From Candidatus Saccharimonadales bacterium (GTDB lineage Bacteria; Patescibacteriota; Saccharimonadia; Saccharimonadales; UBA10212), in assembly GCA_035758565.1 (NCBI GenBank), contig DASTXL010000001.1, positions 396,981 through 460,980 on the forward strand: 64,000 nt of DNA. Direction: 5' to 3'. Position numbers and translations under genes: made by a program. Shown here one piece after another: positions 8,537-53,135 of this stretch (position 1 is the first letter of the stretch; each line of letters opens with the position of its first letter). Below the pieces are notes generated by a model that ran no database searches, was not told the DNA's origin, and was given only the letters and a program-made list of their open reading frames with translations.

Positions 8537-8547
8537 CGCCCCGCCCC

Positions 8548-21827: not shown

Positions 21828-24800
21828 CTAATTGCTTACCCAGCGTACGTAGCAGGTCAGATTATTGATGCCTATGGAAGCTCCGGAACTGGATGCTGTG
21901 ATATAGAGGTCGGGCTCCAAGTTGTCGGCATTGGTATAGCTACTTAAATCTTTCCAACCGGAGTCTTCAAAGACTTCTGAAGTTGGGTATGAATCTGTTG
22001 GGATAAATGTGGCAAAAGAGTTAATCCCGCTCATTGTACCGCCATTATTACTGGTATGAAAGGCCACACTCACCGTACCGTGAGCGCTGCCATTATCATA
22101 GGTGCTCATCATAAATCTGATCTGTGGATGCAAGCCGGCATTAGTTGGTCCACGCAGCGGCACTACCGGCAAACCTATGAATGTCCCTGCGGTGTTGCTG
22201 CCCAAACTTCGATTGGCATTACCCAGATAACTTGTGCCTTGCGTTATTATGCCCGTGTACGGCTGCTGATCCGATACCCATTTGCCATAGGTAGCGTCAT
22301 AAGTCAGCGTCAACATATCATAAGGACTGGAGCCTGCACGAATACGTACCTGGCGGCCATCATATAGATTGGTCGTCGGCAGTGTGGTAACTACGTCTAC
22401 GCCGGCCAAATTATTGTAAGCACCATTATCGCAGCCGCGGAACTGATTAGAACTGGAGTTATAGTAGATGCCTCCACTGGTACAACCGCCAGCAGGGTCG
22501 CCCGAAGTATTTTTAACCCCTAGAACCAGTATTACGGGCGTGGAGCTGGCCGAACCCAAATTAATCTGCATATTCGTGGTGTCAACCGTGAACAAATTAG
22601 TACCGCTGGCATTTTGGATCTGAAAAGCAGAAATGGAATCTGCGGCATTCTGGAACAGGGCTGAACCAGTACTACCCGACAGGCTAGCTACGGTAGAAAG
22701 ACTATTGGCTGCAGTTCCAAAAACAAGCCTACCTATCGCATGATTAGTTTGATTAGCCCAGTAAACATCATTGATGCTCGAGGTCATGTCGGCAAGGTTG
22801 CCAGAAGCCGTAATGAAGTTCGAGTTACTGCCTGTGCCGTCTAGGCTGGCACGGCCGATAGTCCCACTACTGTTGGTCCAGTAGAGGAAGGTGGGAGTAA
22901 CAGTTATGCCTTGTGGTGTGCCAACGGCGATAGCCACCAGGCTATTATTTGCACCCGTGCCGTCGAGATTAGCGCGGCCAAGAGAATGACTGTTAGTCCA
23001 GTAAATATGCGAGCTGTCTATGGCAACGTCCGTTATGTGCTCGCCTACAACACCCGAAATAAAGCTCTGGTTTACCCCGGTGCCATCAATATTGGCTCGA
23101 GCAACGGTATCGCCGTTATATTCTCCCCAGTAAATGTAGTTAGTATTAACGACTATGTTTTGCGGCACGCCAGATAACCCTGTTATAAAGCTACCGTTTG
23201 CACCGGTGCCGTCGAGGTTAGCGCGACCAATGGCGGTGCCCGTGGACCAGTAAATGTAGGTATTATCTACGGCCAAACCTACGGCTCCCGAGATGCCGGT
23301 TATAAACGATGTGTTTACCCCGGTGCCATCAATATTGGCTCGACCGATAGAATTAGTAGGAGCATTAATCCAGTAGATAAAGTTATTGTCCACCGCTACT
23401 CCAAAAGGTCCTGTTGGCGAGCTTACGCTCATGAAACTGGGGCTTAGGCCGTTTGTATTAGGCTTAGCGATCTGCAGATTGATATTGCCGCCATTGCCCG
23501 CCCCCGTACCTTGACCGCCTGCTAATATCAAGTTACTTCCGGCTACGTCGGCTCCGGCGCTGGCCGCCACCTGCAACATTCCGCTACCACCCGGGTTAGA
23601 TAGCAGCAATCCCCCTGCGCCAGACCCTACAGCCAGCGTGCCGTCAGTCTTCAAGGTGTTGCTAGCTGAGCGATACAGGTTAGTGTCCGTACCAAAACTT
23701 ATACCGCCAGTGGAGGTTGTGGTATTTGTTCCCACAACCAGCACGCTACCAGCGTCCGAAGTAGCGTTAACGGTTATTAAATTATTGGCCGAAGCATCTT
23801 GTACTTGAAGCGCGATAGGATTATTAATGCCTGTCTGCCATTGGTAAGTGGTCGAGTTGGCATTCCATATCATAGTGGGCAGCCCCGTAAGAAGAGACGT
23901 AGATAGATTAGTTAACGTAGGGTCGGTATTGCCGTAAGTGTTAAGGGTCGAGGCGTCCGCGGCACTCAAGGTTCCCTTTCCGGCAGCGAACCAGAATACA
24001 TCGCTATCGGTACTGCTATTGGCAATCGTAAAGCTTGATGAGTTGATGGTCGGCATGCCCGAGTAAGAAGTGGTACTGAATGCCGATCCGTTTACCGATA
24101 CGCCAATCTGCGAGCCTGTCCAGAAAGCCACCAAGGTGTAAAGATTAGTCTGAGTTATATCTACGTTACTTTTGAGCGCTAGTGCTGAATTGACGCCAAA
24201 ACGCACATCAGACGTAGGTCCGCCGCCGCCCCCATGAATACGGAGTAAGGCCTGGTTGGTACCATCAGTCCAGTTAAAGGTTGCTATGTCGCCCACTCTG
24301 CTGGCCGGCTGATCCATTCTAAAGCGTATAGCTATCCATCCTTGTGCTTGGTTGAGGAGGCTGGATGGGGCGGTGATATTACCGGCGGATCTAGTCTGAG
24401 TAGTACCATTGGTTTCTACGTAAGGTGTCGCGTATGGCCTTGCTTCAGCCTGGGCCCCGTCAATATAGAACGTAGTATTTTGCTGGACATCAGTTTCGAC
24501 ATATAAGCGGAAGGTGCCTGAGCCCAGAGGCGAAGAAGTAGTTAGAGTCAGCCTGGTCCAGCTGGTACTAGACAGCGTAACCGGGGAGCTTGTAATTACT
24601 GCTGTTGGTGTATTATCGGTCAGGCGCAGGCGCACCGTAGGACTGCCGGTGCTCGCTTTAGCCCAAACACTAACGGTATGGATTTGGTTACTTGATTGGA
24701 CAAAGGTAGTATAAGCCCCCTCATTGGCCGTGGAATTGCTGGTGACTATTTGGGCTGAACGCGAACCGAACTTTGCGATACTGGACGAGCTAACAGAAGA

Positions 24801-27800
24801 AGATACAGAGGTCCAGCCGCTGGTGCTGCTCTCGAATCCGCCGTTGGCCACCAGGTTGTTGACTGATTCCCACACCCCATAGCTACTGTCGCTGGTGATG
24901 CCGTCGTACGAGTGACCGGCCACATTAGTGGTGCTTGCTCCTTCGGCGCGCATGGCATCATTTATTTCACTGCCGCTAGCCGTTAGATTAGCGCTCAATA
25001 CCGGACTAGAGAAGTTGTCTTTTATGGCTAGAGTAGCAATCGGGCTGCTGGTGCCGATGCCTATCTTGCTATTTATAGTGTCCGCTACCAGAAGGTTGGA
25101 CGTACCGGCGGCATTTTGTACCTGAAATGCGCTCATTGAATCAGCGGCGTTTTGGAATAGTGCCGATGTATTGGCAGTCAAAGAACTGCCAGAAGAACTC
25201 ACGTTCAATAGGTTTGAGCCGGCAGCGTTTTTAACCTGAAAGGCGTTGGTGTTATCTGTAGCGTTTTGGAATAGTGCCGAGCCGTTGACACCAGAGATAG
25301 TGGCGACAGTAGAGAGAGAATTGGCTCCGCTGCCAAAACTGTAGCGACCAACAGTAAGCAAGCTTGAGTTAGTCCAGTAGAGGAATGAACTATCCACGGC
25401 CACGCCTCCCGTATTAGATCCAGTGATGTAGCTGGTATTTATGCTGGACCCATCAAGGTTGGCACGGCCGATATTTCCCCCACTTACCGACCAATAAAGA
25501 TGACCACTGTCGACAGCGACCTCTGCAGAAGCAGTGTTCGCGCCTGTCATAAAACTCTGATTAACGCCGGTGCCATCTAAATTGGCACGGCCGATATTAC
25601 CTGGGAGAGAAGTAGCGGCAAAAGTCCAATAGACATGTGAGCCGTCAACTGCTATTCCGTATCCGGCTTGGCTGATGCTAGTAACCAGGGCCTGCACGTT
25701 CGTGCCGTCCAAGTTAGCACGACCGATGGCGAATGCGCCTTGAGCGTCGGTGAAGTAGATATAATTACTGTCTACCGCTATGCCTCTTATAGCAGCACCC
25801 TGCCCGGTTATAAAACTATTGTTAACACCTGTGCCATCCACATTAGCGCGGCCGATGGAGCCGCCCCCTATTGTCCAGTAAACATAGTTATTATTAGCTG
25901 CTAAAGCAACTATGCTGCCAGAAGTTATAAAATTCGGGTTAGCATTAGTGCCATCCAGGTTGGCACGGCCGATCTTAGTGCCGCTATTTACCCAGAAGAT
26001 GTAATTATTGTTTACAGCTACTTGTCCCGCGGAACTCAGCCCGGTAATAAAGCTCTGGCTAGGTACGTTAACTGATGGTTTAGCAATTTGCAAATTAATG
26101 TTACCGCCATTGCCAATCCCGGTGCCCGCGCCACCGGCTAATATCAAGCTACTACCGGCTACATCAGCTCCAACAGCTGTCGCCGCCTGCAGCGTACCAG
26201 CGTTGCTGGCTCCGCCAGCAAGAATCAAGTTGCCCGCGCCATTACGGTAAAGTTGCGTATCTGTGCCAAAGGTTACGCCGCCAGCAGAGGTTGTCGTGTT
26301 AGTGCCAATTGTCAGCAACGAACTAGTCGGAACCGCTCCTATGCCTATGCGAGTATTTTGAGTATCAGCGACAAATAGATTACTGTTCCCTGCCTGATTC
26401 TGAATTTGGAAAGCCGTGGTGCTGTCGGTAGCATTTTGGAACAGCACATTGCCGCGAGCTCCAACCGTAGCTACACTTTGACCGCTATCGCCAGCTACCA
26501 GATCAAACAAGTCAGCAGTTTGACCAGAGGCGCCGCGGATAGTGGCAACAACATGATTGTTGGCATCTGACTGAATAGCGAAATTAGCAGTCTGCAAAGA
26601 GGTAGAATTTTGAATATAGTTGCCACTGCCGGCTCCCGGTGTACAGCCACCAGCTGAACAAATTATATTTCCACCCACGCGAATGGCCGTTGTTGAGTTA
26701 ATGTCGCCCCCGACATCTAGCGTATAGGTTGGTGGCGTTGGCATGGCTATGGCCACCCTGTCATTCACAGTATCACCGCCTATGAGATGCGAGGTACCGG
26801 CAGCATTTTGCACCCAGAAAGCGTTGGTCGAATCTGTGCCTGGCTGAATTAATACGTTGCCTGTTGGCCCAACCGAAAAGACTGTGTCGTTAAAGCCGTC
26901 GTTAACCTGGAAAATATTAGCGATTTGTCCAGACGCACCCTTTACTAGCCCAGCGACAGAGTTAACATCGGCGCTTTGAACAGCAAAGTTCGCGCTCTGT
27001 ACCGAGGTTCTGTTTTGGATATAACTGCCCGATCCCGAGGCGGCCGTACAACCAGCACCCGAGCACAATGCAACACCGTTAATCCTTATTGAACCTCCAG
27101 CAGTTACATTGATGTCGCCGTTAACATCCAAGGTGTAATTAGCGCTTGTTTGATTTATAGCCACCCGCCGGTTTGAGGTATCTACTAAGAACAGCGCTGT
27201 GGTGCCGGCGGAGTTCTGAATCTGAAAAGTGTTGGTAGAATCAGCGCCAGGTTTAAATAGGTTATTGTTAGAATTTTTTAAAGTAACGTTCGAGCTCAGG
27301 CGAGCATCAGGTAGCGTGCCGGATGAAATATTGCCAGCATTTAGTGCAAGTAACGCTGAACCATTTAGTGCCGGCAAAATGCCACTTGGCCCTAGTTGAA
27401 CAAGTTGCAGTGCACCATTGAAGCTATTGCCAGCCTGGGTAACATTTGGGCTGAGCTGGGTTGACGAGGAAACTATATTCGGAGCATTGAGTTTACCATT
27501 GATAGTAACCGTACCTGTCTTGGTGTCAACATTTATAAGGCTTGTGCCAGAAGCGTCTTGGACAGTAAAGGCCTTGGTTGAATCGGTGTCATTTTTAAAG
27601 GCCACCGGTCCAGACGCGGTTAGCTTTTTGCCGTTAGCGATCTTAGTGTCGATGCCAAAGGTTACAGACTCAGCGCTCACATCGCCGAGCGTATTAGATG
27701 ATGGCTCTTGATTATTGACCTGTGATTGTGGGGTATTTGTATGGCGATTCATAACGAATAATGTAGTGGCGGCGCAAACTAAGACTATTAGGCCAACCAC

Positions 27801-28118
27801 TAAGAAAGATCGCTTCGGTATTCCTGGCGCCCAACTTATCTTTTTGGACTGTGCAACCGGCGGCTCAGGTGCCACAGCATAAATAGACTCATTAAGAGTC
27901 GGCGCAGCTGGGCTAGGTACCATGCCCTGCGTAGCGAGAGTTGGCGCGGCTTCTAGCGAGCCTATTTCGGGTACACCTGGAGTTATAACGCTATTAGGCG
28001 TTTGAGTAAGCTGAGATGTACTGGCAATAGCCGGTGCTTTAGTCACGGCAGAAGTACTGTTTTGAACAGGGGTAGGCTGGATAGAACTAATAGGAGTCGG
28101 CTGCTGCTCTGGATTCAT
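21828..28118 (-). CDS. giant membrane-anchored surface protein (2096 aa)
   Basis: Pro/Ser/Thr-rich N-terminus with one TM (about aa 100-125). About 13 copies of an ALFQNAADSxxAFQIQNAAGTxLLxADTxNxRIGIG-type repeat. A ConA/LamG-like jelly-roll (about aa 1060-1400). Two YWTD-type six-bladed beta-propellers with YWT...IGRANLDGTGxN.SFITG...VAVD blades (about nt 25346-26051 and 22721-23441). A Cys-containing C-terminal domain (GGCTSGGIYYN...RGCDNGAYN) is shared with the 4696-aa paralog. Strong AGGAG ribosome-binding site. Confidence 0.85.
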   Translation of the reverse strand: MNPEQQPTPISSIQPTPVQNSTSAVTKAPAIASTSQLTQTPNSVITPGVPEIGSLEAAPTLATQGMVPSPAAPTLNESIYAVAPEPPVAQSKKISWAPGIPKRSFLVVGLIVLVCAATTLFVMNRHTNTPQSQVNNQEPSSNTLGDVSAESVTFGIDTKIANGKKLTASGPVAFKNDTDSTKAFTVQDASGTSLINVDTKTGTVTINGKLNAPNIVSSSTQLSPNVTQAGNSFNGALQLVQLGPSGILPALNGSALLALNAGNISSGTLPDARLSSNVTLKNSNNNLFKPGADSTNTFQIQNSAGTTALFLVDTSNRRVAINQTSANYTLDVNGDINVTAGGSIRINGVALCSGAGCTAASGSGSYIQNRTSVQSANFAVQSADVNSVAGLVKGASGQIANIFQVNDGFNDTVFSVGPTGNVLIQPGTDSTNAFWVQNAAGTSHLIGGDTVNDRVAIAMPTPPTYTLDVGGDINSTTAIRVGGNIICSAGGCTPGAGSGNYIQNSTSLQTANFAIQSDANNHVVATIRGASGQTADLFDLVAGDSGQSVATVGARGNVLFQNATDSTTAFQIQNQAGNSNLFVADTQNTRIGIGAVPTSSLLTIGTNTTTSAGGVTFGTDTQLYRNGAGNLILAGGASNAGTLQAATAVGADVAGSSLILAGGAGTGIGNGGNINLQIAKPSVNVPSQSFITGLSSAGQVAVNNNYIFWVNSGTKIGRANLDGTNANPNFITSGSIVALAANNNYVYWTIGGGSIGRANVDGTGVNNSFITGQGAAIRGIAVDSNYIYFTDAQGAFAIGRANLDGTNVQALVTSISQAGYGIAVDGSHVYWTFAATSLPGNIGRANLDGTGVNQSFMTGANTASAEVAVDSGHLYWSVSGGNIGRANLDGSSINTSYITGSNTGGVAVDSSFLYWTNSSLLTVGRYSFGSGANSLSTVATISGVNGSALFQNATDNTNAFQVKNAAGSNLLNVSSSGSSLTANTSALFQNAADSMSAFQVQNAAGTSNLLVADTINSKIGIGTSSPIATLAIKDNFSSPVLSANLTASGSEINDAMRAEGASTTNVAGHSYDGITSDSSYGVWESVNNLVANGGFESSTSGWTSVSSSVSSSSIAKFGSRSAQIVTSNSTANEGAYTTFVQSSNQIHTVSVWAKASTGSPTVRLRLTDNTPTAVITSSPVTLSSTSWTRLTLTTSSPLGSGTFRLYVETDVQQNTTFYIDGAQAEARPYATPYVETNGTTQTRSAGNITAPSSLLNQAQGWIAIRFRMDQPASRVGDIATFNWTDGTNQALLRIHGGGGGPTSDVRFGVNSALALKSNVDITQTNLYTLVAFWTGSQIGVSVNGSAFSTTSYSGMPTINSSSFTIANSSTDSDVFWFAAGKGTLSAADASTLNTYGNTDPTLTNLSTSLLTGLPTMIWNANSTTYQWQTGINNPIALQVQDASANNLITVNATSDAGSVLVVGTNTTTSTGGISFGTDTNLYRSASNTLKTDGTLAVGSGAGGLLLSNPGGSGMLQVAASAGADVAGSNLILAGGQGTGAGNGGNINLQIAKPNTNGLSPSFMSVSSPTGPFGVAVDNNFIYWINAPTNSIGRANIDGTGVNTSFITGISGAVGLAVDNTYIYWSTGTAIGRANLDGTGANGSFITGLSGVPQNIVVNTNYIYWGEYNGDTVARANIDGTGVNQSFISGVVGEHITDVAIDSSHIYWTNSHSLGRANLDGTGANNSLVAIAVGTPQGITVTPTFLYWTNSSGTIGRASLDGTGSNSNFITASGNLADMTSSINDVYWANQTNHAIGRLVFGTAANSLSTVASLSGSTGSALFQNAADSISAFQIQNASGTNLFTVDTTNMQINLGSASSTPVILVLGVKNTSGDPAGGCTSGGIYYNSSSNQFRGCDNGAYNNLAGVDVVTTLPTTNLYDGRQVRIRAGSSPYDMLTLTYDATYGKWVSDQQPYTGIITQGTSYLGNANRSLGSNTAGTFIGLPVVPLRGPTNAGLHPQIRFMMSTYDNGSAHGTVSVAFHTSNNGGTMSGINSFATFIPTDSYPTSEVFEDSGWKDLSSYTNADNLEPDLYITASSSGASIGINNLTCYVRWVSN

Positions 28119-28300
28119 CGCCTTGCTCCTGTAGTTATTAGACGCGGAACTCGCTCTACATGATGGGCTGCCTGTAGCCTAAAGTCATAGCCAGCCCTGG
28201 ATAGCCGTTTTCGGCATTTGGGCGAGCAGGTTTTAGCGTCTCGCCTGCCCTCGAAGAGACAGGCGCAGCCAGCGCAGATTTTTATCTTTTTTGACGCCAT
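28115..28300 (-). CDS. small Cys-rich protein (61 aa; putative zinc-ribbon), translationally coupled to the 2096-aa giant gene
   Basis: Motif CAGCAC...(x10)...CSPKC. Its stop TGA overlaps the giant gene ATG in an ATGA arrangement. A-rich leader with no Shine-Dalgarno sequence. Local GC is higher than the surroundings. Confidence 0.35.
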   Translation of the reverse strand: MASKKIKICAGCACLFEGRRDAKTCSPKCRKRLSRAGYDFRLQAAHHVERVPRLITTGARR

Positions 28301-28337
28301 TTTTGTTTTTGTTTTAAGCCTTTTTGTTTTAATTGGG

Positions 28338-28381
28338 CTTAAGCTTAATTATTCGCTAAAAATGTGACCTCGTCAAGAGAA
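28338..28381 (-). promoter_or_regulatory. candidate promoter (TTGACG, 17-nt spacer, AATAAT on the minus strand) embedded in two direct repeats of GTCACATTTTT spaced 23 nt apart
   Basis: Plus-strand AAAAATGTGAC at 28348-28358 and 28371-28381. One copy lies in the -35/-10 spacer and one is upstream of the -35 box. Confidence 0.35.
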
Positions 28382-28414
28382 AAAATGTGACTTTGTGCCT
28401 AAAATTAATCAGTT

Positions 28415-32989: not shown

Positions 32990-32997
32990 TCTTATTC

Positions 32998-41900: not shown

Positions 41901-44900
41901 GCGCTCCTGCTGAAGGCATTATCCTTCTAGCCGCGCTTACGATTAAGTCCTCCGAAGAGTTTGGATTATAGGCCTGGCCTAAGGATCCAACAGGAGAACC
42001 ATCTTCATAAAGAATAATGTTCGTAACAACACCCGCACCAGGAGACCGGACTATTGGTGCATAGAATTCCACCATAACTGGTGTATTGCCGCTGAATGTT
42101 AACGAAGGCGCCGTAACCACCGTGTTTGGCGATGCGGGGTTGGTGGAAGTCACATTTATTTGGCCGGTGGAATTCTCGGTGTATGCCAATTCAGTACTTG
42201 TGGTTGTTGTCTGACTACTAGTGCCGGAACCACTACCGCCTAGAGAATAATTAGAATCTACCTTCCAGCTTGGATTAGAGCTTAAGTCTGGCCCGCCATT
42301 ATATATAGGAGCAGACTGAATAGTATTCTGTACGCTGCTTCCGTTGTAGCCACCTAGCAGATAAAGCGCGTTGCCTACAACCTGAATTGAGCCGTAGGTA
42401 GTGGCGGTTGGCAGGAAGTTGCCAACACTCGTCCACCCGGCGACCGGATCGTTAATTGGAGCACGATAGACCGCCTGCGTAATAGTGCCGCCTGGCTGGC
42501 CACCGATGAGATAAACGTAGTTGCCAATGATAGCCAGCTGCTGCCCTGTGGCGGCTACCGCATTGTAGTTGGTATATGTCCAAGTCAATGGATCGGAAAC
42601 TGAGGCACGGTAAACCCCGCTAAAGTAAGCGCTTCCATTATAGCCACCAAACACGTAGACATAGTTGCCTATAACAGCCAGTTGGGATCCAAACATGTTC
42701 AATGGCATGACATGCGAACCATTGGCAACCGAACTCATATTAGACCAGGTCAATGGATCGGAAACTGAGGCACGGTAAATTACATTCGTCGCCCCAGCAC
42801 CGCTGGAAGCCGCCCCGTTATTTCCTCCGTACAGATAGATGTAATTGCCAATTATAGCCAGCTGCGAACTTGCTAGATTACCCGGAAGCGTAGCTCCGGT
42901 ATCGACCCAAGTAGTTGGGTCAGATACGCTAGCACGGTAAATAACATTCGTCGCATTGTTACCACTTGTTCCACCGAAACCGCCAAACATATAAATGTAG
43001 TTGCCGATGATAGCGGTCTGTGACTGGCCAAGGTTATTGGGCAGTGTTTTGCCTGTGTCGGTCCAGCTGGTTGGATTAGATGTTGTTGCGGTGTAAATAG
43101 TCTTCGTATAAGTAGTAGGAAAGACGGAAGAACCGCCAAGCATGTACAGGTTGTTGCCCACCGTGATTACTGAAGCCTCAGCTCGTGCGGCCGGAAGTGT
43201 TCCGGCGCTTGTCCAGTCGCTCTCCATCAAGCCGTAGTTATTACTGGAGCTTGAGCCACCACCGCCCGCACCAGACGCCGGCTTAATGAGTGCCCATGCC
43301 TTACCACCAGACGCGGTAGACATAGCTTGGCCAACAATTCCTCCGGATGGCGACGAGCTGGACTGAGCTTGACCGGTGGTAGATGAAGTAACTAGGTAGT
43401 CGCCAACATTGACAGTTCCAGTTACATTGACTTGATAGATACCAGAAACTACCACCGGCTCGGAGCCGCCAGTTTGAGTCTTAGTAGCTATACCAAACAC
43501 TTGAGTGGAGTTAGAAGAAGATGAATCTTTAACGTAGCCGGCATTGGCAGCATCTATAACCACCACATCACCTGCGGTTACAGAACCGGTGATGTTTTCG
43601 TTGATGGTGAGGCCTTGATTCTCATTGCCGGTATTTGAGAAACCAATGGTCCCGCCAACGCTCAGGTTACCAGCTACACTCACGTTGCCAGCCGCACTGA
43701 CGCTCAAAAGATTGGCATTGCTAGCGTCCTGAACGTCCAGTACATCAGCAGTCTGGCCCGTAGTACCGTGGATGGTCGCCGTCACGCTGCTAGCGGTAAT
43801 ACTTTGGATGTTGAAGTTCGCACCCGTCTGCAAAGCCGTACCATTTTGGATACCACCACCACCCTGCAGGCTTGGATTAGCCAGAGTAACACGGATATAG
43901 CCAGGGATCGTGTTGGTTCCGCTAACCTGAGCGCCCGAGCCGCCATCTTGATCAGCCGAAATTGTAAACGTATGTGAACCAATCGAAGGTGTAAGCTCCG
44001 TCGTCAGGTAAACAGTATCGTAGTCGGTGGTGGTAGAGCCGGAATTATTGGTATGCCCAACATACCCAAGCCTATCCACAAGCGAGCCGTCCTCATAAAG
44101 ATTAAACTCAGTGTGCGCTGACTGAGAGTTGGGAACTCCGTTATACTGCGGCGCATAAAACTCTACCATAACCGGAGAACCATCATAGGTAGCAGATGCC
44201 GAAGTTACGATCGTGGTTGCGGATGTGCCAATAGAATGTGTCCCCGTGAAAGTAGTGTATGCCAGCTGATAGTTGGACGCTTGGCTGCCGCTTGAACCGG
44301 AGCCACTAGAAGAAATATATGGATCGCCGTTGCCGCCGTTATACAAGTCCGAAACTTCCTGGGCGGAAAGCACTTTATTCCACAAACCGACTTCGTCAAT
44401 GCTGCCTTTGAAGTAGTTACTGCCGGATCGTCCGCCAAGATAGTAGTGTGAGCCCGTGCTAAAACCAGTAGAATAGGCAACTGGATTAGCCGAATCTGCT
44501 ACTCCGTCTACATAGAATCTTAGCTGACTGCCACTATATGTCATCACAACGTGGTGCCAGCTTGTTGTGTCAGTTATGGCTATGTTTCCGGACGCCCCGC
44601 TTATGCCAATTTTACCGAAGGATACTTTACAGCTACCATTGAGAAGATAGAAGCCATAACCATTGTTGTCACCACCCAGTATATAGCTGCCAACGCCTGA
44701 ACAAGTAGGATCATTATTTTTTATCCAGGCGGATATGGACAACGTGGAAGTTTGATTCAGGGTGTTGCCGTTACCCAAATCTACGTAGTCGCTAGTCCCG
44801 TTAAAGCTCCTGGCATAGTTCTTTTTACCGCCAGTTATGGTCGTACCGTTAGCCACGCCGTAGTTAGTGTTTACCGAATCTTTGACGGTTGTACCGGATG

Positions 44901-47088
44901 CTTCGTCCAGGTTCCAGTAAGACATCAACCCTGTGGTCAACGAATTGCCAGAATCAACCGCGAATCCAGAGTAACTGCTGCTGGAGCCGCTACCGCCACC
45001 GCCGCTCCCTACTCCACTGCTTGGGTTTATATAAACCCAAACCGTGCCGTTGCTGCCAGAAGATTTAGAGCTCAGCGCTTGGCCGATCGTCCCGCCAGTT
45101 GGTGATGTTGAATCAGTACCAAGGCCGGTGGTTGAACTGGTAACTATGTAATCACCCACGTTCACTGCCGCAGTGTCAACATTCACCTGATAGACGCCGC
45201 TCACCACAATCGGTTGAGCTACGCCAGCGCTATTTGTCGTGGTCGCCACGCCGAAAATCTTAGTGGAATTAGCCGAAGTACTATCTGTCACCTGCCCAGC
45301 GTTGCTGGAATCTATAACCACGATGTCGCCGGCTGTAGTGGCCGATGTAACCACCATGTTAAGATCAATCCCCTGATTGGCGTTACCGGTGTTGGTAAAG
45401 CCAATACTAGAAGTGGTGGTCAAGTTACCAACAACCTGAAGGCTATCATCAGTTTTTAGTGCGTTGTTGCCGGATCGATAAAGGTTGACGTCCGTACCAA
45501 AGTATAAGCCGCCACTAGCGGTTGTAGTGTTGGTGCCGACATTCAAAAGTCCATTTGTGGTAGTGGAGCCGATGCCCACCTGGCCAGCCGAAGCAATAGT
45601 CACGGCTTGGACTCGTGACGACCATCCGCTCTGAAGGTTTGTATAAAATGTAATCGTATTATCTGATGTAAGCGCCAAATTCTCGTTGGAATAGGCGATG
45701 TTTGCTGCCGCGGTCGCAGCCGACTCACCAGAGCCTAAGATTGTTGAGCCGCCGGCACCAATGGCAATGCCAGCCCCATTGGCATCTTCGCCATACTTGT
45801 TAACAATAACCCCGTTGTACGTGCCCGCCAGATTGATATTGCCACCTACGGTTAATGTGCCGCCAACTACACCCGTTCCACTGATATTGAAGTTGGAACT
45901 TGGCTGCTGTGATGTGCCGTTTTGGATATAGTACGACGAACCAGAAGCGGCCGTACAGCCGGTACTTGAACAAATTTGCACACCACCCACGCGGTAAACT
46001 CCAGAGACGTTGGCGTCGCCGCCTACGTCCAGCGTGTAGCCTGGAGTAATGCTACTGCCGATAGCAATGCGTACGTTTTGAACTCCGCCGGCACCATCCG
46101 ATTCGCCGTAAACAGTAAAGGCGTTGGTTGAGCCAACTCGCATAGTGTAGCTTTCTGGCGTACCAGTGGCAGCCGAGCTATCAATGGGTAAATCACTGAA
46201 AGTCACCTGGCCAGCATCTGTTGGCAAGACAATACCGCCATCTATAGCCAGCGCAGCACCTAGTTGAATTTGGTTGTTTGAATTAACTTGCAGGATGTTT
46301 ACGTTGCCGGTGCCACTAGCATCAACCGCGTTAATCCACGCACTGTTGGCGATAGTCAACGCACCCTGCGGGTTTGTAACACCAATGCCCAACGCCCCGG
46401 CCACGTCAAAGCTGCCGTCAGTTTTGATGGTTCCAGATGCCGAACGATAAAGATTGGCAGTAGTGTCGCCGCCGAACGTCAAAGCACTGGACGAACCAGT
46501 GGCATTAGGCAAAGATATCTGGTTACCAGAAGTTGTGAGCAGCGTAGAGCCGCTAGAGTTTTGGATCTGAGCAGCGGCATTGGCTTTGAACGCGTACGGG
46601 ATAGCGGTCAGTTGGATGCGCGGATTCATCTCGCCATCCCAGCTTGGGCTGCCGGTACCGCCGATATTCATGGTTAACCATAGCTGCTGGTCCCAGGGCA
46701 TAGTGGATGGGAATGGATTAACCGATCCCAGGTTAACAGTCAGGTAACCATCAACCACTCTAACCTGGTTGCCACTGGTGCGAGTTTCGTACCATAAACA
46801 GTGAGCATCACCACTACACGACCCCTGCCCCGAACCGGTTGACGAGCTGGCATCGTAGATCTTGAACTCGACATTGTAGTTGCCGTCTTGCACGATAGCA
46901 CCGGTAGAACTCATCAAGCGAGCTTGGAAGTTTAAGTAACTACTCGTGACAGCCGTGGCGGTCGGTGCGCCAGAAAAACAAACAGCCAAAACGCCAAACA
47001 GCCCCATTAAGGGGCCGGCCAGGGCAATTCGAATGCTTTTACGCACGCGTAGTAAATAATCACGCGCCCGCAAGGAGCTTTTAGGCAT
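32998..47088 (-). CDS. giant secreted or anchored surface protein (4696 aa) built of six tandem modules of about 2 kb, with four Kelch-like beta-propellers
   Basis: N-terminal signal peptide. A LamG_3-type domain (LMSYWNLDEASG...WHHVVMTYSG...DEVGLWN, about nt 44390-44950). The modules recur six times with the motif LQGGxGIxNGTxxQTxNFNxQS, roughly every 2 kb. There are four Kelch-type propellers (GNxIYxFGG blades with a conserved W). A glycine-rich segment lies at about nt 37980-38480. The C-terminal Cys domain is homologous to that of the 2096-aa protein. Only 8 nt separate its stop from the next gene start. Confidence 0.85.
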   Translation of the reverse strand: MPKSSLRARDYLLRVRKSIRIALAGPLMGLFGVLAVCFSGAPTATAVTSSYLNFQARLMSSTGAIVQDGNYNVEFKIYDASSSTGSGQGSCSGDAHCLWYETRTSGNQVRVVDGYLTVNLGSVNPFPSTMPWDQQLWLTMNIGGTGSPSWDGEMNPRIQLTAIPYAFKANAAAQIQNSSGSTLLTTSGNQISLPNATGSSSALTFGGDTTANLYRSASGTIKTDGSFDVAGALGIGVTNPQGALTIANSAWINAVDASGTGNVNILQVNSNNQIQLGAALAIDGGIVLPTDAGQVTFSDLPIDSSAATGTPESYTMRVGSTNAFTVYGESDGAGGVQNVRIAIGSSITPGYTLDVGGDANVSGVYRVGGVQICSSTGCTAASGSSYYIQNGTSQQPSSNFNISGTGVVGGTLTVGGNINLAGTYNGVIVNKYGEDANGAGIAIGAGGSTILGSGESAATAAANIAYSNENLALTSDNTITFYTNLQSGWSSRVQAVTIASAGQVGIGSTTTNGLLNVGTNTTTASGGLYFGTDVNLYRSGNNALKTDDSLQVVGNLTTTSSIGFTNTGNANQGIDLNMVVTSATTAGDIVVIDSSNAGQVTDSTSANSTKIFGVATTTNSAGVAQPIVVSGVYQVNVDTAAVNVGDYIVTSSTTGLGTDSTSPTGGTIGQALSSKSSGSNGTVWVYINPSSGVGSGGGGSGSSSSYSGFAVDSGNSLTTGLMSYWNLDEASGTTVKDSVNTNYGVANGTTITGGKKNYARSFNGTSDYVDLGNGNTLNQTSTLSISAWIKNNDPTCSGVGSYILGGDNNGYGFYLLNGSCKVSFGKIGISGASGNIAITDTTSWHHVVMTYSGSQLRFYVDGVADSANPVAYSTGFSTGSHYYLGGRSGSNYFKGSIDEVGLWNKVLSAQEVSDLYNGGNGDPYISSSGSGSSGSQASNYQLAYTTFTGTHSIGTSATTIVTSASATYDGSPVMVEFYAPQYNGVPNSQSAHTEFNLYEDGSLVDRLGYVGHTNNSGSTTTDYDTVYLTTELTPSIGSHTFTISADQDGGSGAQVSGTNTIPGYIRVTLANPSLQGGGGIQNGTALQTGANFNIQSITASSVTATIHGTTGQTADVLDVQDASNANLLSVSAAGNVSVAGNLSVGGTIGFSNTGNENQGLTINENITGSVTAGDVVVIDAANAGYVKDSSSSNSTQVFGIATKTQTGGSEPVVVSGIYQVNVTGTVNVGDYLVTSSTTGQAQSSSSPSGGIVGQAMSTASGGKAWALIKPASGAGGGGSSSSNNYGLMESDWTSAGTLPAARAEASVITVGNNLYMLGGSSVFPTTYTKTIYTATTSNPTSWTDTGKTLPNNLGQSQTAIIGNYIYMFGGFGGTSGNNATNVIYRASVSDPTTWVDTGATLPGNLASSQLAIIGNYIYLYGGNNGAASSGAGATNVIYRASVSDPLTWSNMSSVANGSHVMPLNMFGSQLAVIGNYVYVFGGYNGSAYFSGVYRASVSDPLTWTYTNYNAVAATGQQLAIIGNYVYLIGGQPGGTITQAVYRAPINDPVAGWTSVGNFLPTATTYGSIQVVGNALYLLGGYNGSSVQNTIQSAPIYNGGPDLSSNPSWKVDSNYSLGGSGSGTSSQTTTTSTELAYTENSTGQINVTSTNPASPNTVVTAPSLTFSGNTPVMVEFYAPIVRSPGAGVVTNIILYEDGSPVGSLGQAYNPNSSEDLIVSAARRIMPSAGAHTFSAGAVVGSGTGQIFCGTSVSTDHDPCYIRITLANPQLQGGAGIQNGTTVQTGNFNLQSSSQTSVTGILKGATSQSADVFEVQDASSTNLFNVGPTGNVSIAGNLSVGGTIGFSNAGNASQALTINENITGSVTAGDVVVIDTSNAGYVTDSTTANSTKVVGIATKTQTGGSEPIVISGIYQVNVGATSVNVGDYLVTSSTTGQATTSASPSGGVIGQTMSTASSNKAWALIKPAGGAGGSSGSSNNYGLMESDFTDTGATVPYIAHNQTVTIGNTIYFFGGADLSTFTATNKIYSAPVSNPTNVTYTGFNLPNYVRNSVIAIVGSNIYLYGGIDNTGTAINAIYTASVSNPTSWSSAGTLPGGLALNQSSLAIIGSNIYFFGGLNGTSTYTNEIYRASISSPATVVDTGHTVPVALRQSSVAVIGNYVYLFGGINSSGSTVNAIYRAPVSSPETGWTTTNGSFPGSTANASTNLAIIGNYIYLIDGYYNSGYANFIWRAPVSNPVNGWADTGSVLPNGLTMGGLQIVGNAIYLYGGIRVGGYSGSIYSAPIYSGSPDVSANPSWITDSNYSTGGGSGTSSQTANTNYELAYAERNSNSISVTATGSGSYTTIVTAPSITMDGNTPINVEVYSPYYYAPATNGGTLFIAILDNGSVVKIPGIFNTDGSSPSTFQSSAGVLSYRYTPSAGSHTFTFAAFESGGQAYVGSGDGTTGSYAPAYIRVTLANPQIQGGSGIANGTTTQTANFNVQSSSASSVTAVIQGATSQSADILEVKDSSNTNLLAVDPSGNLTVKGNIGFANQGNANQGITLNMKVTSAVTAGDVVVIDTANAGQVTDSTSANSTKVFGIATQTKSAGQYQPIVVSGLYQINVGSNSVNIGDYLVTDGSAGEAMASSSPTGGVVGQATSTASSSKVWALIKPASGTGGSGGGGMTTLYDSTLTSDTAGFDVSSIPGTYSQLKIAVYGRTAMNSQFDQIALRFNGDSSADYDFQKVEGNNTAVNGAANTGMSSASIGWLPGSSASNNTFAAGSSEATITNYAGTSFHKSFTAINSSNVAYTAASLDGSTWSDTWTSTSAINRIQVISMNGSNFKAGSRLVIYGIGGSNSGGSGSGGSGIVGVQTYTSGSGTFNLPAGVTSLQVELVGGGGGGGLGNQYGSGGGGGAGGYVRKFISSPSSSYSYAVGAAGAPWGGGAHTSGGTTAFGALSATGGTDAGGGTAPAGGTGGTGTGGDVNVTGGTGNDGAYNYTGQSGGNGGASYFGGGGAGGNYTTAGGAGVAYGSGGGGAGGISSSSLSGGYGAGGVIIVTEYGTSLQGGGGIQNGTTLQIGANFNIQSASPSSVTATIHGTSGQSADILDVQNSSNINLLSVDPNGNTFVAGNLNVGGTIGFSNIGNQNQGISLNMVVTSSVTAGDVVVVDTTTAGQVTDSTTANSTKVFGVATTTNSAGVSQPIIVSGIYQVNVDTAAVNIGDYLVTSSTTGMATSSSSPSGGVIGQALSAKAAGSNGTVWARINPGNGAGGSGSGSGYGLMESDFIDTGATLPVAPGLVEGAPATIGNYVYMFGGATGAGAGVTTIMRAPVSNPTSWTAVGNLPSGANLYSSQLAIIGSKIYLFGGAIAGASTANIYSANVSDPVGSWTLAGSLSTSLTSSSLAIIGSNIYLFGGYHTGTGYINTIYTASVSNPLSWSTAGSIAPASSGIGDSNLAVIGNYVYLFAGANGSSTLNTIYRAPISSPTSWVNSGGTIPNAGTGSGLDNSSLAIVGNYVYLLGGYNGGYVSVIFRAPVTDPVWGWATTAYMNGVLVDSRVSIVGNALYVWGGYTGTAYSNKIYSAPIINGSPDVSSNPSWITDSNVGTGGSGTSSQTANNNTELAYSEFTAPVTVSATSASTANTVVTATSISSDGNTPVVVEFFAPRVDAGADGHTIVSLYEDGSSIGDIFGQVYSGANMQGYDPVHVTRRLTPTAGAHTFSIRAWRINANGTVEAGPGGTGGTTFVPGYIRVVLANPQIQGGSGINNGTTTQTANFNIQSASGNNPTAIIQGASSQSADILDVRNSSGSNLLSVDANGNLGITGAIGFNNSGNASQIMTVNETVTTSVNANDVVVIDTNNAGQVTTTTLANSTKVFGVATKTMSAGQSQPIAISGIYQVNVDTAAVNVGDYLVTSGTAGKATDSAYPSGGIIGQAMSAKTAGSNGTVWVRLNPGNGAGGSGSGAGYGLMESDWTNAGTLPANMYGGQVATIGNTIYLFGGNVGGSTSQHVYTAPVSNPTSWTDQGAKLPGALEESQVAVVGSYVYLFGGYNGSAATNVIYYAPVSDPINSWQTAAGTLPGNLVNSQLAIIGSNIYLFGGASAVNTAGNVIYTASISSPTSWSSAGTLGFNIFFSQLAVIGNYVYMFGGNNGGGPMRNIYRAAISSPTSWVSTGYTLNTNMQNATILIVGDHIYLMAGTTVQEAPINNPLLWAATDSLPSSSYLSPAFIAGNAAYVLGGSGVSVIQSAPIYDGGPDLSSNPSWKIDSNGGSGGGSGTSSQTSGSNYQLAYNQFTSPVTISATSESTANTVVTASSFTADGATPYMIEFYTPEIDFNNAAYPSLTFVLYEDGSSIGKMGQTIISNNVGALTFTGIMESREITPSAGAHTFSIRAYEAVSNATVQGGNGGSGNYVPGYIRVTLANPSLQGGSGINNGTTTQTGNINIQSSSASNPTMVLQGATSQSADILDVKNSSGSILFNVGPTGNVSVAGNLAVSGTVVLGASTSDPGCTNGGLYYNTTSYQIRGCANGAWNSLNGIDIVTTIPTTNLHDGETVYLKVSAPADYLKLTYDAAQGHWYSEADATINELPSATTLNSSAWSPYGAMPLSNCMSLYNAGLRPQIYVSGYMNSSGTGTTTYIRASLYTHGGSSASPYGSLWATGPSVSVFANNVYQIANWTDATYSGAPANAECELSVEYNTASVNATYENLGAMVRWRSQ

Positions 47089-47350
47089 GTTTTACCTGTT
47101 TATTTTAGTTTTAAGGTTTTTGTCTTGCCTTGCAGTTTTAGCCCACGTTTTCTGCTAAAAGCGCAATAAGACTAGTTACAGATTACGCTTCCCTGTGGAC
47201 AATGTCAACGAAAGTGCTCATGTTTTCCACACCTTGTCTCCAGGTAGACTCAGTCACTGGGGCTTGAAACCACTACACATTTCGGCAAAAAAAGTTACTA
47301 TTTTGTGGGATACTCAATTGAATATTTATCTGTTGACTAACCTTATAGTA

Positions 47351-49420
47351 CTAGCGGTATATGGAATATAGGTCTGCCACTTCGACTTGCGAGAGCGCTC
47401 TGTTCCAAACGCGGGCGTCGTCTATGCTCCCGTTCCACGCGTTCGTTGCACCGGTGAAATTCAGGCCTCCAAAGCTGGGATTAAGAGCCACTGTGGTAGT
47501 AGATTTTAGTGCGGAATCCCAGTAAGACCTAAGGGTAGCTCCATCATAAGTTACGGTGAACATGTGCCACTGATTGACCGGAAGGGTCTGGCCAGAAGTG
47601 CTAGCAAAGGTAGATCCAGCGTAAGGTGTGGTGCCATATTCAAGCCCAATCGAATCACCGAAATTTTGGCTTCTTATACCGAAATAAGTATGCGTGTTAC
47701 TCGATCCCATTATTTCTGGCCAGTGGTAAATCGAAGAAGTAGTACGCATTAGCCAAATATTATAGGTAAAACCGGCCGGTAAGTTAGAGTAAATGCTCGG
47801 ACTGCCCACACCTATCCAGGCACCTGAATCACCTAGCTGGTAAGCACTGTTTGCTCGACCTTTGCGGTCTGCGGTTAAGGTTGCGCCATTCACAGTGCCA
47901 TTGTTGCCGTATGGCGTAGCATCGCGAGCGTTGCCGTTAAAGTCCCATTCGCTAATCAGCCCGGATGAAAGATTGATACTGCCACCTGAACTAGTCGCAC
48001 TATATAGAGGTATTTGTGAGTCGTAAGTGTTATATAAACTAGATACTTCGCTGGCACTTAAGTCGCGGTTATATATTCTGATGTCATCGAGCGACCCGTT
48101 AAAGTAACGGGACGAAGCCATAGGTCGGCCAAAGTATATCCAGTTCGCATAATTGGAAAAGTTGGGCGTGCCCGTTACGGCTGTCGAGATTTTTTGCGCC
48201 CCATCCACATAGATCTTCGTGGTAGTGTCCAAAACGACTACAACGTGATGCCAATTGTTGTTTGTGATTACCGGAGTTGACTGACTGAAATTAACCGTTC
48301 CGCCGGTTTGGCAATAGAACTGCAAATTAGTATTGCTTTGGCTTAAATGGCACTCGTTTTGGCCGCCAAAACCATCGCCATTGGTATTTTCTCCAGCGTA
48401 AATCATATGACCTAGAGTATTAGTTGTATTAGCCTTAAACCATAATGATACGCTCATAGGAAAAGTGAATTTTACACCATTAACCTGCAAGTAGCTTGAC
48501 GCCCCATCAAAAATGTAAGCGCTGCTGGCAGTGTTTTTTCTGTCTACGGCCAGTGTCGCTCCGCTTATAGTTGCATCGTGGTTGAATGGCGTCGAGTCCT
48601 TGCCATTGCCATTCATGCGCCACCAGCCAATTAAACCGTTTTCGCCGGCCCCTAGAGCAACCGAGGAGTTGTAAGTACCGTAAAGGACAGAGACCTCGGC
48701 GGCCGATAAAGCCCGGTTGTAGATTCTTACATCGTCGATTGAGTGAGTAGACGAGCCGGCGGCGTGTTCGCCGACTGTCCAATTGCCGGTGTTGTGCAGG
48801 GTAACCCCACTGACCGACTTTGTGGTAGAGCATACATTGCCGTCAAAATAGACTTTAACCGTTGAGCCATCGTAAGTTCCTACTAAATGGTGCCATGAAT
48901 TTATTGTCATAGTGCCGGTACTGCAGGCCGAATTGTACTGCAAGCCGGAATGGAAAACTCCAAACAACACCTGCCCATTGCCAAGCGTATAGAGGTCCCA
49001 GCTTCCCTCTGAAGTCCAGTTATTAGCGGCTAGATCGTAATAATTCACCAGGGTTGATTGGTTAACCCAGAGACTAACCGTGATTGCTGATGTTGGCAAC
49101 CCGCCGGCCGGCAAAGCAACATATTGGTTGGTACCATTGAAGCTCAGAGCTGAGTTCGCAGCACCATGGCGGTCGGTTGTTCCCGTGGGCCCACCCGTAA
49201 GTGTTCCGTTGTTGGCGTACGGTGTGGCATCTCTAGCGTTTCCGTCCATCTTCCACCAGCCAACCAAGCCCCTTTGGAGTTCAATGTCGCTCGAAGATAC
49301 TGGACCACCACCATTGCCCAGCAGCAAAGCTCGGGTTATGGTAGCTCCAGCACCCACTACTAAAACAGCTAGAGCAATAACAATATATTTTTGCCGGCGT
49401 GACCTAAACATAAGCCCCAT
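47351..49420 (-). CDS. secreted or anchored protein (689 aa) with three LamG_3 / concanavalin A-like lectin domains
   Basis: N-terminal signal anchor. Three repeats of LxGWWxMxGNxxDxTPxxNNGT ... WHHxV.TYDGxT...YxDG (LamG_3 signature). Confidence 0.8.
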   Translation of the reverse strand: MGLMFRSRRQKYIVIALAVLVVGAGATITRALLLGNGGGPVSSSDIELQRGLVGWWKMDGNARDATPYANNGTLTGGPTGTTDRHGAANSALSFNGTNQYVALPAGGLPTSAITVSLWVNQSTLVNYYDLAANNWTSEGSWDLYTLGNGQVLFGVFHSGLQYNSACSTGTMTINSWHHLVGTYDGSTVKVYFDGNVCSTTKSVSGVTLHNTGNWTVGEHAAGSSTHSIDDVRIYNRALSAAEVSVLYGTYNSSVALGAGENGLIGWWRMNGNGKDSTPFNHDATISGATLAVDRKNTASSAYIFDGASSYLQVNGVKFTFPMSVSLWFKANTTNTLGHMIYAGENTNGDGFGGQNECHLSQSNTNLQFYCQTGGTVNFSQSTPVITNNNWHHVVVVLDTTTKIYVDGAQKISTAVTGTPNFSNYANWIYFGRPMASSRYFNGSLDDIRIYNRDLSASEVSSLYNTYDSQIPLYSATSSGGSINLSSGLISEWDFNGNARDATPYGNNGTVNGATLTADRKGRANSAYQLGDSGAWIGVGSPSIYSNLPAGFTYNIWLMRTTSSIYHWPEIMGSSNTHTYFGIRSQNFGDSIGLEYGTTPYAGSTFASTSGQTLPVNQWHMFTVTYDGATLRSYWDSALKSTTTVALNPSFGGLNFTGATNAWNGSIDDARVWNRALSQVEVADLYSIYR

Positions 49421-49460
49421 TAACTTCAGTATGACAGAAGTTAGGGGCTTTAAAAAGTTC

Positions 49461-49766
49461 TTAAGCGATCTTGGTGATTTTTACCAAAGTATGGCGCTGG
49501 CGATGGCCGCGGACTTTACGAACACGCTTTTTAGCTTTGTAGCGGATAGCAACTACTTTGTCGGCTTTTACTTCTTGTTCGACTACTTCGGCACTAACTT
49601 TAGCACCGCTCACCAGCGGGGTGCCAACGCTCACTTTCTCGCCATCAATAACTAGCAATGGATCGAAGTCTACCGTCTTGCCAGCCTGCAAAAGCTCAAC
49701 TTCAACTTGCTCGCCTTCACTAACGAGGTATTGCTTTCCACCAGTGGCGATAACTGCTTTTTTCAT
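49461..49766 (-). CDS. rplU: 50S ribosomal protein L21
   Basis: MKKAVIATGGKQYLVSEGE..., full-length L21 similarity. It is not followed by rpmA. Confidence 0.9.
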   Translation of the reverse strand: MKKAVIATGGKQYLVSEGEQVEVELLQAGKTVDFDPLLVIDGEKVSVGTPLVSGAKVSAEVVEQEVKADKVVAIRYKAKKRVRKVRGHRQRHTLVKITKIA

Positions 49767-49990
49767 AAATCTTTTCTAAGTTTAATCCTTTTGATAACTA
49801 TTCTCCGGAAGAGCAGCGAGCTTGAACCGCCCTAAAGGCGGGCTCGGCTTTGCCGACGAGCGATGAGAAACCGCGAAGCGGTGTCTCATTTATCAAATAA
49901 GAGCTTAACAGATTAAGCAGTCAGTGTAAAGGGTTAACCCCTCTTGCCTTGCCTGAAGGGCCTCAGAGTTAACTAGCCATATAATGCTAG

Positions 49991-52906: not shown

Positions 52907-53135
52907 CTTTCTCCTTAATAAAATAACCTCTTAAAAGTTCCCTGGAGCCCTTGCGGGCGGTACCATCCAGATTCCTTTAAAGAGGCACTTATTTTCTCCG
53001 GTAACGACGGATCAACTCGTCGGGTTCTACTTGCCAAAAGGCTTTCTTCCCACTCCGCAACCTTTATGCAAGGTTTCGCAGTTGATAGCTGCTGATAACG
53101 GACTTCTTTGAATTGTTCACTTAGAGAATAACCTA
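52907..53135 (-). ncRNA. candidate T-box leader (Ile specifier) upstream of ileS
   Basis: On the minus strand, AAGGAATCTGGATGGTACCGCCCGCAAGGGC matches the T-box core (AGGGUGGNACCGCG). It is followed by a bulged hairpin (CTGGA...TCCAG) plus UUUU, then AAGGAG and the ATG. An upstream stem-loop carries an AUC-A specifier candidate (plus-strand gat at 53084-53086). Confidence 0.55.

Follow-up and report, generated by a model that had tools for sequence, protein, structure and literature searches.

We analysed a 64,000-nt stretch of DNA, hereafter the window, from Candidatus Saccharimonadales bacterium (GenBank assembly GCA_035758565.1, contig DASTXL010000001.1, positions 396,981 to 460,980 of the forward strand), in which four consecutive giant genes, here named A, B, C and D, lie between rplU and parAB. 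An initial annotation, made from the sequence alone, had described four co-directional minus-strand genes at this position, filling 43% of the window, and a check of the open reading frames (ORFs) returned exactly the same coordinates. The array spans 27,593 nt, and its products measure 689, 4696, 1524 and 2096 amino acids (aa). The gaps are 40 nt between rplU and A, 262 nt between A and B, 8 nt between B and C, 296 nt between C and D, and 78 nt between D and parA. L21 and IleRS are encoded upstream of the array, and ParA, ParB, signal peptidase I, an LCP protein and HtrA downstream. The genes and boundaries, with coordinates in the window, are as follows.

49461..49766, minus strand: rplU (L21), upstream boundary of the array
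47351..49420, minus strand: gene A (689 aa), transmembrane segment (TM) at aa 13-35, then three LamG/ConA-like jelly-rolls at aa ~47-685
32998..47088, minus strand: gene B (4696 aa), signal-peptide-like N-terminus, stalk, ~690-aa super-repeat, neck, tip
28415..32989, minus strand: gene C (1524 aa), low-complexity tail, TM at aa 98-117, stalk units, divergent LamG-like module, neck, Collar tip
21828..28118, minus strand: gene D (2096 aa), low-complexity tail, TM at aa ~105-126, stalk, YWTD propeller, stalk/LamG-like region, YWTD propeller, neck, tip
20134..21749, minus strand: parA-parB, downstream boundary of the array

Three of the four products are built around the same repeated element. Using an iterative hidden Markov model (HMM), we defined a stalk unit of ~140 aa with the consensus ST.AF.IQNAAG...ADT.N.RIGIG..P.YTLDV.GDIN...C..GC...GSG.YIQN.T..Q..ANFNIQS...GA.GQTADLL, which occurs in seven full or partial copies each in B, C and D and in none in A. 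The start of the unit is marked by variants of AF.[IV]QN[AS][AS]G, found twice in C, three times in D and not in B or A; the exact string AFQIQNAAG, which the initial annotation had listed as a repeat, occurs nowhere. C and D align at 35% identity over 684 aa and at 34% over 572 aa, and the C-termini of B and D at 34% over 291 aa. The four proteins had been described as paralogous in parts, and the alignments bear this out for B, C and D. Since A has no stalk unit, its membership of the same system is uncertain; it is a separate protein with three LamG modules, probably serving as a co-expressed accessory lectin.

At the opposite end of the same three proteins lies a Cys-loop neck with the pattern C..GG.YYN......RGC.NG.W, located 186-199 residues before the C-terminus. 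The form YYN..S...RGC.NG.WN, previously assigned to a C-terminal Cys domain, is exact in B and C and present only as a variant in D. The residues past the neck fall into two unrelated groups, a Collar domain in C and a tip shared by B and D. We interpret the occurrence of the same neck with two unrelated tips in one locus as a tip swap at a conserved junction.

The N-termini differ among the four proteins. In all of them, 4-6 Lys/Arg residues stand right before the hydrophobic segment, a positive-inside pattern that fits an orientation with the N-terminus inside. The N-terminus of B resembles a signal peptide, in agreement with the initial annotation, which had given the other three proteins a low-complexity cytoplasmic stretch and a single TM. 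That description suits C and D, the only two with a long pre-TM stretch (~97-104 aa, 61% P/S/T/A/Q), and not A, in which 12 residues precede the TM (signal-anchor type). FGIDTKIANGK, listed as a shared module in the initial annotation, follows the TM in C and D and is absent from A, B and every other homologue. No LPxT[GAS] sorting signal was found in A-D, whose C-termini are the tips themselves. JGI names for homologues refer to YadA/TPS adhesins, and Pfam searches of A-D and of their domain-free segments detected neither a YadA-type C-terminal anchor nor an N-terminal TPS domain.

Pfam and PDB searches recovered the modules that had been named earlier: three Laminin_G_3 stretches in A (Pfam E 7.5e-70), Kelch propellers in B, a Collar domain in C, and Ldl_recept_b/DUF5050 propellers in D, which match the YWTD propellers of LRP4, LRP2 and LRP6 in the PDB. 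PHROG matches of A are to virion structural and tail fibre families. The initial annotation had overlooked the distal tip and, in B, a Gly_rich_2 module and six copies of Phage_cement_2. Also overlooked were divergent LamG modules of C and D, which emerged from a scan of segments without a domain. The super-repeat of B comprises ~690 aa, in which a stalk half-unit is followed by a cement module, then by a Kelch propeller and a linker; the cement modules lie at aa ~550-690, 1140-1270, 1835-1965, 2520-2653, 3110-3245 and 3800-3932. The tip of C also has a weak match to a solved long tail fibre (8kec_A, E 0.0013). The modules of B, C and D map to the window as follows.

44338..44943, minus strand: LamG module of B (aa 716-917), Pfam, 32-36% identity to the three LamG modules of A
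35293..45441, minus strand: span of the six Phage_cement_2 modules of B, PF09956 E 2.6e-27 in 6 stretches, phrog_673 in 6 stretches
42289..43221, minus strand: Kelch propeller 1 of B (aa ~1290-1600), Pfam, repeat layout, PDB matches
40219..41151, minus strand: Kelch propeller 2 of B (aa ~1980-2290), Pfam, repeat layout, PDB matches
37975..38523, minus strand: Gly_rich_2 module of B (aa ~2856-3038), PF21722, E 7.1e-11
36379..37311, minus strand: Kelch propeller 3 of B (aa ~3260-3570), Pfam, repeat layout, PDB matches
34489..35241, minus strand: Kelch propeller 4 of B (aa ~3950-4200), Pfam, repeat layout, PDB matches
33559..33627, minus strand: Cys-loop neck of B (aa 4488-4510, CTNGGLYYNTTSYQIRGCANGAW), motif search
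33001..33558, minus strand: distal jelly-roll tip of B (aa 4511-4696, ends ...VRWRSQ), homologous to phage tail fibre C-terminal heads
28979..29047, minus strand: Cys-loop neck of C (aa 1315-1337), motif search
28418..28948, minus strand: Collar-type tip of C (aa 1348-1524), PF07484 E 2.2e-23, tail and tail collar PHROGs
25236..25928, minus strand: YWTD propeller 1 of D (aa 731-961), PDB match LRP2, E 7e-26
22794..23408, minus strand: YWTD propeller 2 of D (aa 1571-1775), PDB match LRP4, E 1.6e-41
22416..22484, minus strand: Cys-loop neck of D (aa 1879-1901), motif search
21831..22415, minus strand: distal jelly-roll tip of D (aa 1902-2096), signature DGR..R.R.GSSPYD..-L.YDATYGKWVS ... AGL.PQ ... 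DSGW ... VRWVSN

One super-repeat of B departs from this layout. At aa ~2660-3038 (window 37975-39110), a ~190-aa module without a domain assignment (~2660-2850), followed by Gly_rich_2, stands where a Kelch propeller would be expected, which looks like a module replacement within the repeat array.

The tip shared by B and D (the last ~190 aa) had no match in Pfam, PHROGs or the sequences of the PDB. A search with it returned a few giant proteins and several of 258-365 aa, the alignment of which contains 11 invariant columns, in DG..R.GSSPYD..YDATYGKWVS, AGL.PQ, DSGW and an RWV at the extreme C-terminus. A profile search then gave 673 cluster representatives, 369 of them at E<=1e-10; most are 190-450 aa long and carry the domain at the C-terminus. 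Seven IMG/VR contigs encode the tip. In one locus of 66% GC (L005), the tip gene comes after the genes for a tail tube and a probable tape measure (1139 aa) and after two further large ORFs, and a Rv2525c-type glycoside hydrolase is encoded two genes past it; this slot is where siphophages usually encode their receptor-binding protein. A second locus (L006, 55% GC) encodes a terminase and a product that matches portal proteins, and in a third (L007) the N-terminus of the tip protein matches three PHROGs named "tail fiber protein". The tip of B and D defines a large family of putative tail-fibre heads that is new to Pfam, PHROGs and the PDB. L007 (IMGVR_UViG_3300036859_000040) is also of interest for its composition: it encodes the tip at 7320-8228 on a 302-aa protein, in a contig of 47% GC, which is Saccharibacteria-like; the host of this phage may be a low-GC bacterium, conceivably even a Saccharibacterium.

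A structural model of the tip built from 12 sequences reached a pLDDT of 67 with weak fold matches only and was superseded by a model built from 142 sequences, from which we propose a jelly-roll fold of the carbohydrate-binding-module or TNF-like lectin class. A neighbour-joining tree of the tips was unresolved, with Saccharibacterial tips interleaved with phage-type ones and B paired with a 244-aa protein. Because this tree carries no support values, we claim neither a direction nor a number of tip transfers.

Relatives of these proteins are widespread. D is identical to an NCBI protein from a Candidatus Saccharimonadales MAG (metagenome-assembled genome), and a search of the contig index with its exact sequence returned no match. 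At E<=1e-5 it has 114 homologues, which measure 1150-3560 aa; those with a source name come from Saccharibacteria, Patescibacteria or unclassified MAGs, with one exception labelled Dormibacteraeota. Their architecture is mosaic, with Kelch, CBM_4_9, Collar, YadA, LVIVD, collagen or Gly_rich_2 domains, and 19 of them end in Peptidase_S74. A strong N-terminal TM is present in 55 of the 59 homologues examined and the stalk unit in 57, on average in 7.2 copies. B, C and D are, judged from their sequences, members of a Patescibacterial family of more than 100 proteins with a predicted TM anchor, a repeated stalk and interchangeable heads. Annotators have named the homologues of D "tail fiber domain-containing protein", "microcystin-dependent protein", or adhesin or hemagglutinin types. 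The statement in the initial annotation that the combination of modules corresponds to no characterised adhesin family was too strong, given this mosaic family of over 100 proteins, some already annotated as tail fibers, and the parallel with Bdellovibrio fibres described below.

A related Saccharimonadales MAG (L010) carries a tip-bearing giant gene directly upstream of the same neighbours as D. These neighbours are 69% (ParA), 69% (ParB), 57% (signal peptidase), 57% (LCP), 70% (a further ORF) and 62% (HtrA) identical. The fibre protein itself matches D at 68% in the stalk (D aa 355-593) and at 45% in the tip, and it lacks ~1200 aa of D comprising propellers and LamG. This comparison indicates that the position has been kept, that the tip diverges faster than the neighbouring genes, and that whole modules are gained or lost. 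It thereby supports, from a single pair of loci, a variable locus. More distant homologues occupy other genome positions, as singles or pairs, and two of them (P0015 and P0003) directly follow the ATP synthase operon. The homologues in this position, directly downstream of the ATP synthase operon, are giant and have Peptidase_S74 tips in two Saccharibacterial MAGs (L003, 10001-18373; L004, 10001-18631).

Having established this domain plan, we compared it with known fibre systems. The mosaic adhesive trimer (MAT) fibres of Bdellovibrio bacteriovorus are phage-like trimers of ~1000 aa at the cell surface, which divide into S74 and non-S74 subgroups. They combine a conserved N-terminal domain with swappable tips, and glycans of the prey are bound by one of them (Caulton et al., 2024; PMC10769870). 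The family of B, C and D resembles them in its plan of a stalk with a variable, swappable C-terminal tip, in having both S74 and non-S74 members and, as far as the model of the B/D tip can be trusted, in tip fold. When the stalk profile was searched against the PDB, the sole match, at E 0.089, was the β-helix of the MAT protein Bd3182 (8ojn), aligned on both capping loops. A variant of the MAT capping loop with one extra residue before the Pro, [VI]GIG...P...L, occurs twice in C and twice in D, against ~0.01 expected. Unlike MAT fibres, the proteins described here are 1.5-4.7 times longer, have a stalk into which whole β-propellers as well as LamG and cement modules are inserted, and begin with a TM and a cytoplasmic low-complexity tail rather than a signal peptide and a conserved β-rich N-domain of ~130 aa. 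The organism also differs in being monoderm (PMC11665869). We conclude that B, C and D may work like MAT and phage fibres; membership of the MAT family is not established.

Comparators among phage fibres include T4 gp12-type Collar tips, S74 fibres such as T5 pb1 and K1F endosialidase, and the receptor-binding proteins of siphophages of Gram-positive hosts. Like these fibres, B and C carry Collar, Gly_rich_2 and matches to tail PHROGs, the tip of B and D is homologous to the heads in L005, L006, L007 and the IMG/VR contigs, and the proteins share a modular stalk-plus-head plan and mosaic evolution. Unlike them, they are encoded on the chromosome between housekeeping genes, with no gene for a virion close by, are predicted to be anchored in the membrane, and are up to ten times longer. 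A "tail fibre-like protein" of candidate phyla radiation (CPR) bacteria has been reported as a conserved neighbour of the ATP synthase and pam pilus operon (bioRxiv 10.64898/2026.03.03.709456). It probably belongs to the same family as B, C and D, of which P0015 and P0003 directly follow the ATP synthase operon. The locus described here differs in its position between rplU and parAB and in its four-gene array, and the preprint mentions the protein as a neighbour only, without domain, tip or function analysis. Consecutive giant surface genes (3,000-8,000 aa) that occupy several percent of a small genome are also described for the extracellular proteins Giant1-5 of Apilactobacillus kunkeei (PMC12863079). 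The likeness is one of description, an array of consecutive giant surface-protein genes, in another organism with another lifestyle, and we claim no homology.

We next consider where else the tip occurs. A scan of 185,579 species genomes, one per species, with a single narrow peptide pattern of the tip signature found six loci, three in Saccharibacteria (giant genes) and three in Actinomycetota, a small sample as expected from so narrow a pattern. The Actinomycetota loci come from one unclassified member and two Thermoleophilia, and for one of the three tip copies a phage integrase, adjacent to dnaX, is encoded 3.6 kb away. Actinomycetota account for roughly one-eighth of GTDB species, and three of three by chance would then be expected at ~0.2%. 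The GC content of the loci also separates the two kinds of gene: among 28 loci fetched, two of which are the same contig, all giant copies have 47-48% GC, while 22 of the 23 distinct non-giant loci have 55-71%, the exception being L007 (47%).

Taken together, we consider it probable, if far from certain, that a Saccharimonadales epibiont displays B, C and D on its surface as fibres for host recognition, similar in design to phage tail fibres and MAT fibres. The initial annotation, which had read the locus as a surface-displayed adhesin or host-attachment apparatus, would then be broadly right. In the mechanism that we propose, the N-terminal TM, or in B a signal-like sequence, would anchor the fibre in the membrane with the N-terminus inside, and a stalk of repeated ~140-aa units, possibly trimeric, would project outward. 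Lectin-type modules (Kelch and YWTD propellers, LamG, cement-like and Gly-rich modules) would be strung along this stalk, and the conserved Cys-loop neck would bear an exchangeable tip of ~190 aa, Collar in C and a jelly-roll in B and D. Such fibres would most likely recognise and bind glycopolymers of the envelope of the host bacterium, and the repertoire would diversify by insertion and loss of modules and by exchange of tips, including exchange with phages.

A further proposal, which we make tentatively and would not ourselves expect to hold, is that the epibionts and the phages of their Actinomycetota hosts share one pool of tips, exchanged at the conserved neck and directed at the same envelope receptors. 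Cultivated Saccharibacteria grow on Actinobacteria (PMC10633639), and phages of Gram-positive bacteria typically use cell-wall glycopolymers as receptors (PMC11032452). If the proposal is true, matching fibre tips to (pro)phage heads could predict which hosts uncultured Patescibacteria live on, and the common receptors would be an object of competition between epibionts and phages, or of selection by them.

Several observations weigh against the fibre reading and its extension to phages. The tip was absent from 50,697 INPHARED phage genome records (GenBank) searched by tblastn, as well as from PHROGs, and the folds that it matches are generic jelly-rolls, none above 12% identity. The stalk match to the MAT β-helix is sub-significant (E 0.089), and the published MAT capping-loop consensus, V-G-G/N-π-x-x-P-x-x-x-L, has no match in A-D. 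The position between rplU and parAB is not kept in distant relatives. The Actinomycetota link is drawn from three loci found with one narrow pattern; the neighbours of one Thermoleophilia locus (L014) are uninformative and include no phage genes, so that a prophage origin is supported for just one of the three (L013 lay outside the examined set). High GC is not specific to Actinomycetota, and amino-acid composition of the short tip proteins is a weak proxy for host GC. Comparison of the phage contigs with cultured phages gave an ambiguous host assignment, with distant and mixed hits to phages of monoderm hosts (Thermoanaerobacterium, Arthrobacter, Bacillus or Clostridium), and further host-assignment comparisons of the contigs gave nothing useful.

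B, C and D might instead be general adhesins or matrix proteins that attach to environmental polysaccharide, biofilm matrix or abiotic surfaces, or that capture nutrients, and play no part in the choice of a host, their phage likeness being due to reused β-sandwiches. Kelch, YWTD, LamG and CBM-like folds are indeed generic binding modules, homologues have been automatically annotated as adhesins or hemagglutinins, and the host specificity of the fibres is something that we infer. This explanation does not account for a tip likeness that extends to the level of sequence, with its invariant columns, nor for a tip signature confined to Saccharibacteria and Actinomycetota among the species genomes scanned. 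Tip swapping on the neck, and a tip that diverges faster than stalk and neighbours, are moreover what would be expected of specificity determinants, and we regard a role as general adhesins as unlikely.

The chance that the array encodes a structural envelope component, such as an S-layer-like protective coat, appears slim. The giant proteins are rich in Ser, Thr, Gly and Asn and poor in Cys and Lys, a composition typical of envelope proteins, and they are encoded among housekeeping and envelope genes (LCP, signal peptidase, HtrA). Pfam detected no SLH or other S-layer domain in A-D, however, and four different architectures with exchangeable tips and gain or loss of modules are unlike a lattice protein, as are relatives that occur as singles or pairs in varied contexts.

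A degenerate prophage or tailocin locus is very improbable. It would explain the Collar, Gly_rich_2 and cement modules and the phage-type tip, but the context is not that of a virion tail module: no phage hallmark gene (capsid, portal, terminase, tube, sheath, baseplate or integrase) accompanies the array, which is flanked by rplU/IleRS and parAB. The GC content of the array, 49-53% vs 43-49% in the immediate flanks, was counted as matching; the N-terminal TM anchors and the position upstream of parAB, kept in L010, also speak against it.

We find it hardly credible that the proteins are contact-dependent polymorphic toxins of the CdiA/Rhs type, with a delivery stalk and a variable C-terminal toxin. 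Giant size, a filamentous repeat stalk, a C-terminus that varies past a conserved junction and a host-damaging lifestyle are all shared with such toxins, but Pfam found no TPS, RHS/YD, PT-/VENN-type junction or toxin domain in A-D, what varies at the C-terminus is a lectin-like jelly-roll or a Collar, and no immunity-sized ORF follows B or D (gaps of 8 and 78 nt).

Equally hard to credit is an artefact of collapsed or chimeric repeats, a concern raised by the initial annotation: B is highly repetitive at the protein level and the Logan contigs that cover the locus break inside B (42614-42749) and D (23314), but two such contigs (run SRR25158471), made by an independent assembler though possibly from the same reads as the MAG, are 100% identical to window 23314-42613 (19.3 kb) and 42750-59420 (16.7 kb), the frames stay open over 14 kb with a coherent domain order, and homologues of similar size occur in many genomes. 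Together the contigs span ~36 kb; they take in C completely, B almost completely and D over 1601 aa. The internal repeats of B, spaced at ~2.06 kb, are only 60-83% identical in DNA sequence and thus too diverged to collapse in assembly. One Logan locus (L034/P0013) was initially taken for the array of a related strain. We rejected it as such, since it is 100% identical and hence from the same organism, so that it serves only as a check of the assembly and as an alternative start for C.

The means by which ultrasmall epibionts recognise and attach to their hosts have been called largely unknown (PMC11623550), and work so far has dealt with type IV pili and unnamed "adhesins" (PMC10633639). The locus supplies concrete candidates, three fibre proteins with expressible tips of ~190 aa, and a single tip type that joins Saccharibacteria, phages and Actinomycetota at the level of sequence. 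New in this analysis are a family of phage-fibre-like proteins that extends across Saccharibacteria, a conserved neck on which tips are exchangeable, and a previously unannotated family of tail-fibre heads (673 clusters). The question of host recognition becomes experimentally testable, and computational host prediction for uncultured CPR bacteria is suggested.

The locus and its surroundings offered several minor observations. The start of C is ambiguous (window 32927-32989): the ORF opens 8 nt past the stop of B, and the Logan gene call P0013 begins at Met22, which would give a protein of 1503 aa and a gap of 71 nt after B. The spacer between C and D contains a 61-aa mini-ORF (28115..28300, minus strand), highly basic and with four Cys (CxxC...CxxxC), whose TGA stop overlaps the ATG of D (ATGA) and so suggests translational coupling of the two. 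It had no Pfam match (a shortened version of 49 aa was scanned) and no counterpart in the Saccharibacterial loci L001-L004, L009-L011 and L015, and its link to the fibre system is uncertain. The same spacer has, at 28376-28348, a promoter-like TTGACG-17-AATAAT; a promoter and terminator scan of the locus did not rise above shuffle expectation, and no tRNA or Rfam element was found in the window.

The gene directly after rplU (window 49421-49766) is the first of the giant array and not rpmA (L27), the usual partner of rplU, and a simple pattern scan found no L27-like motif in the whole window. Elsewhere in the window, GC content rises to 58% at 8001-10000, against ~47% nearby. The rise coincides with a 416-aa ORF (8591-9841, plus strand) whose match to CDP-alcohol phosphatidyltransferases is confined to the C-terminal half and does not include the N-terminal ~200 aa. 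Upstream of P0002, the closest homologue of D, are two ORFs for LAGLIDADG homing endonucleases (L033, 6474-6962 and 8075-8551), which may lie within an intron-bearing rRNA; such rRNA genes are common in CPR bacteria. Finally, a UvrD-type helicase encoded in one Saccharibacterial MAG (L004, 24032-26947) has Hint/intein-splicing domains and appears to contain an intein.

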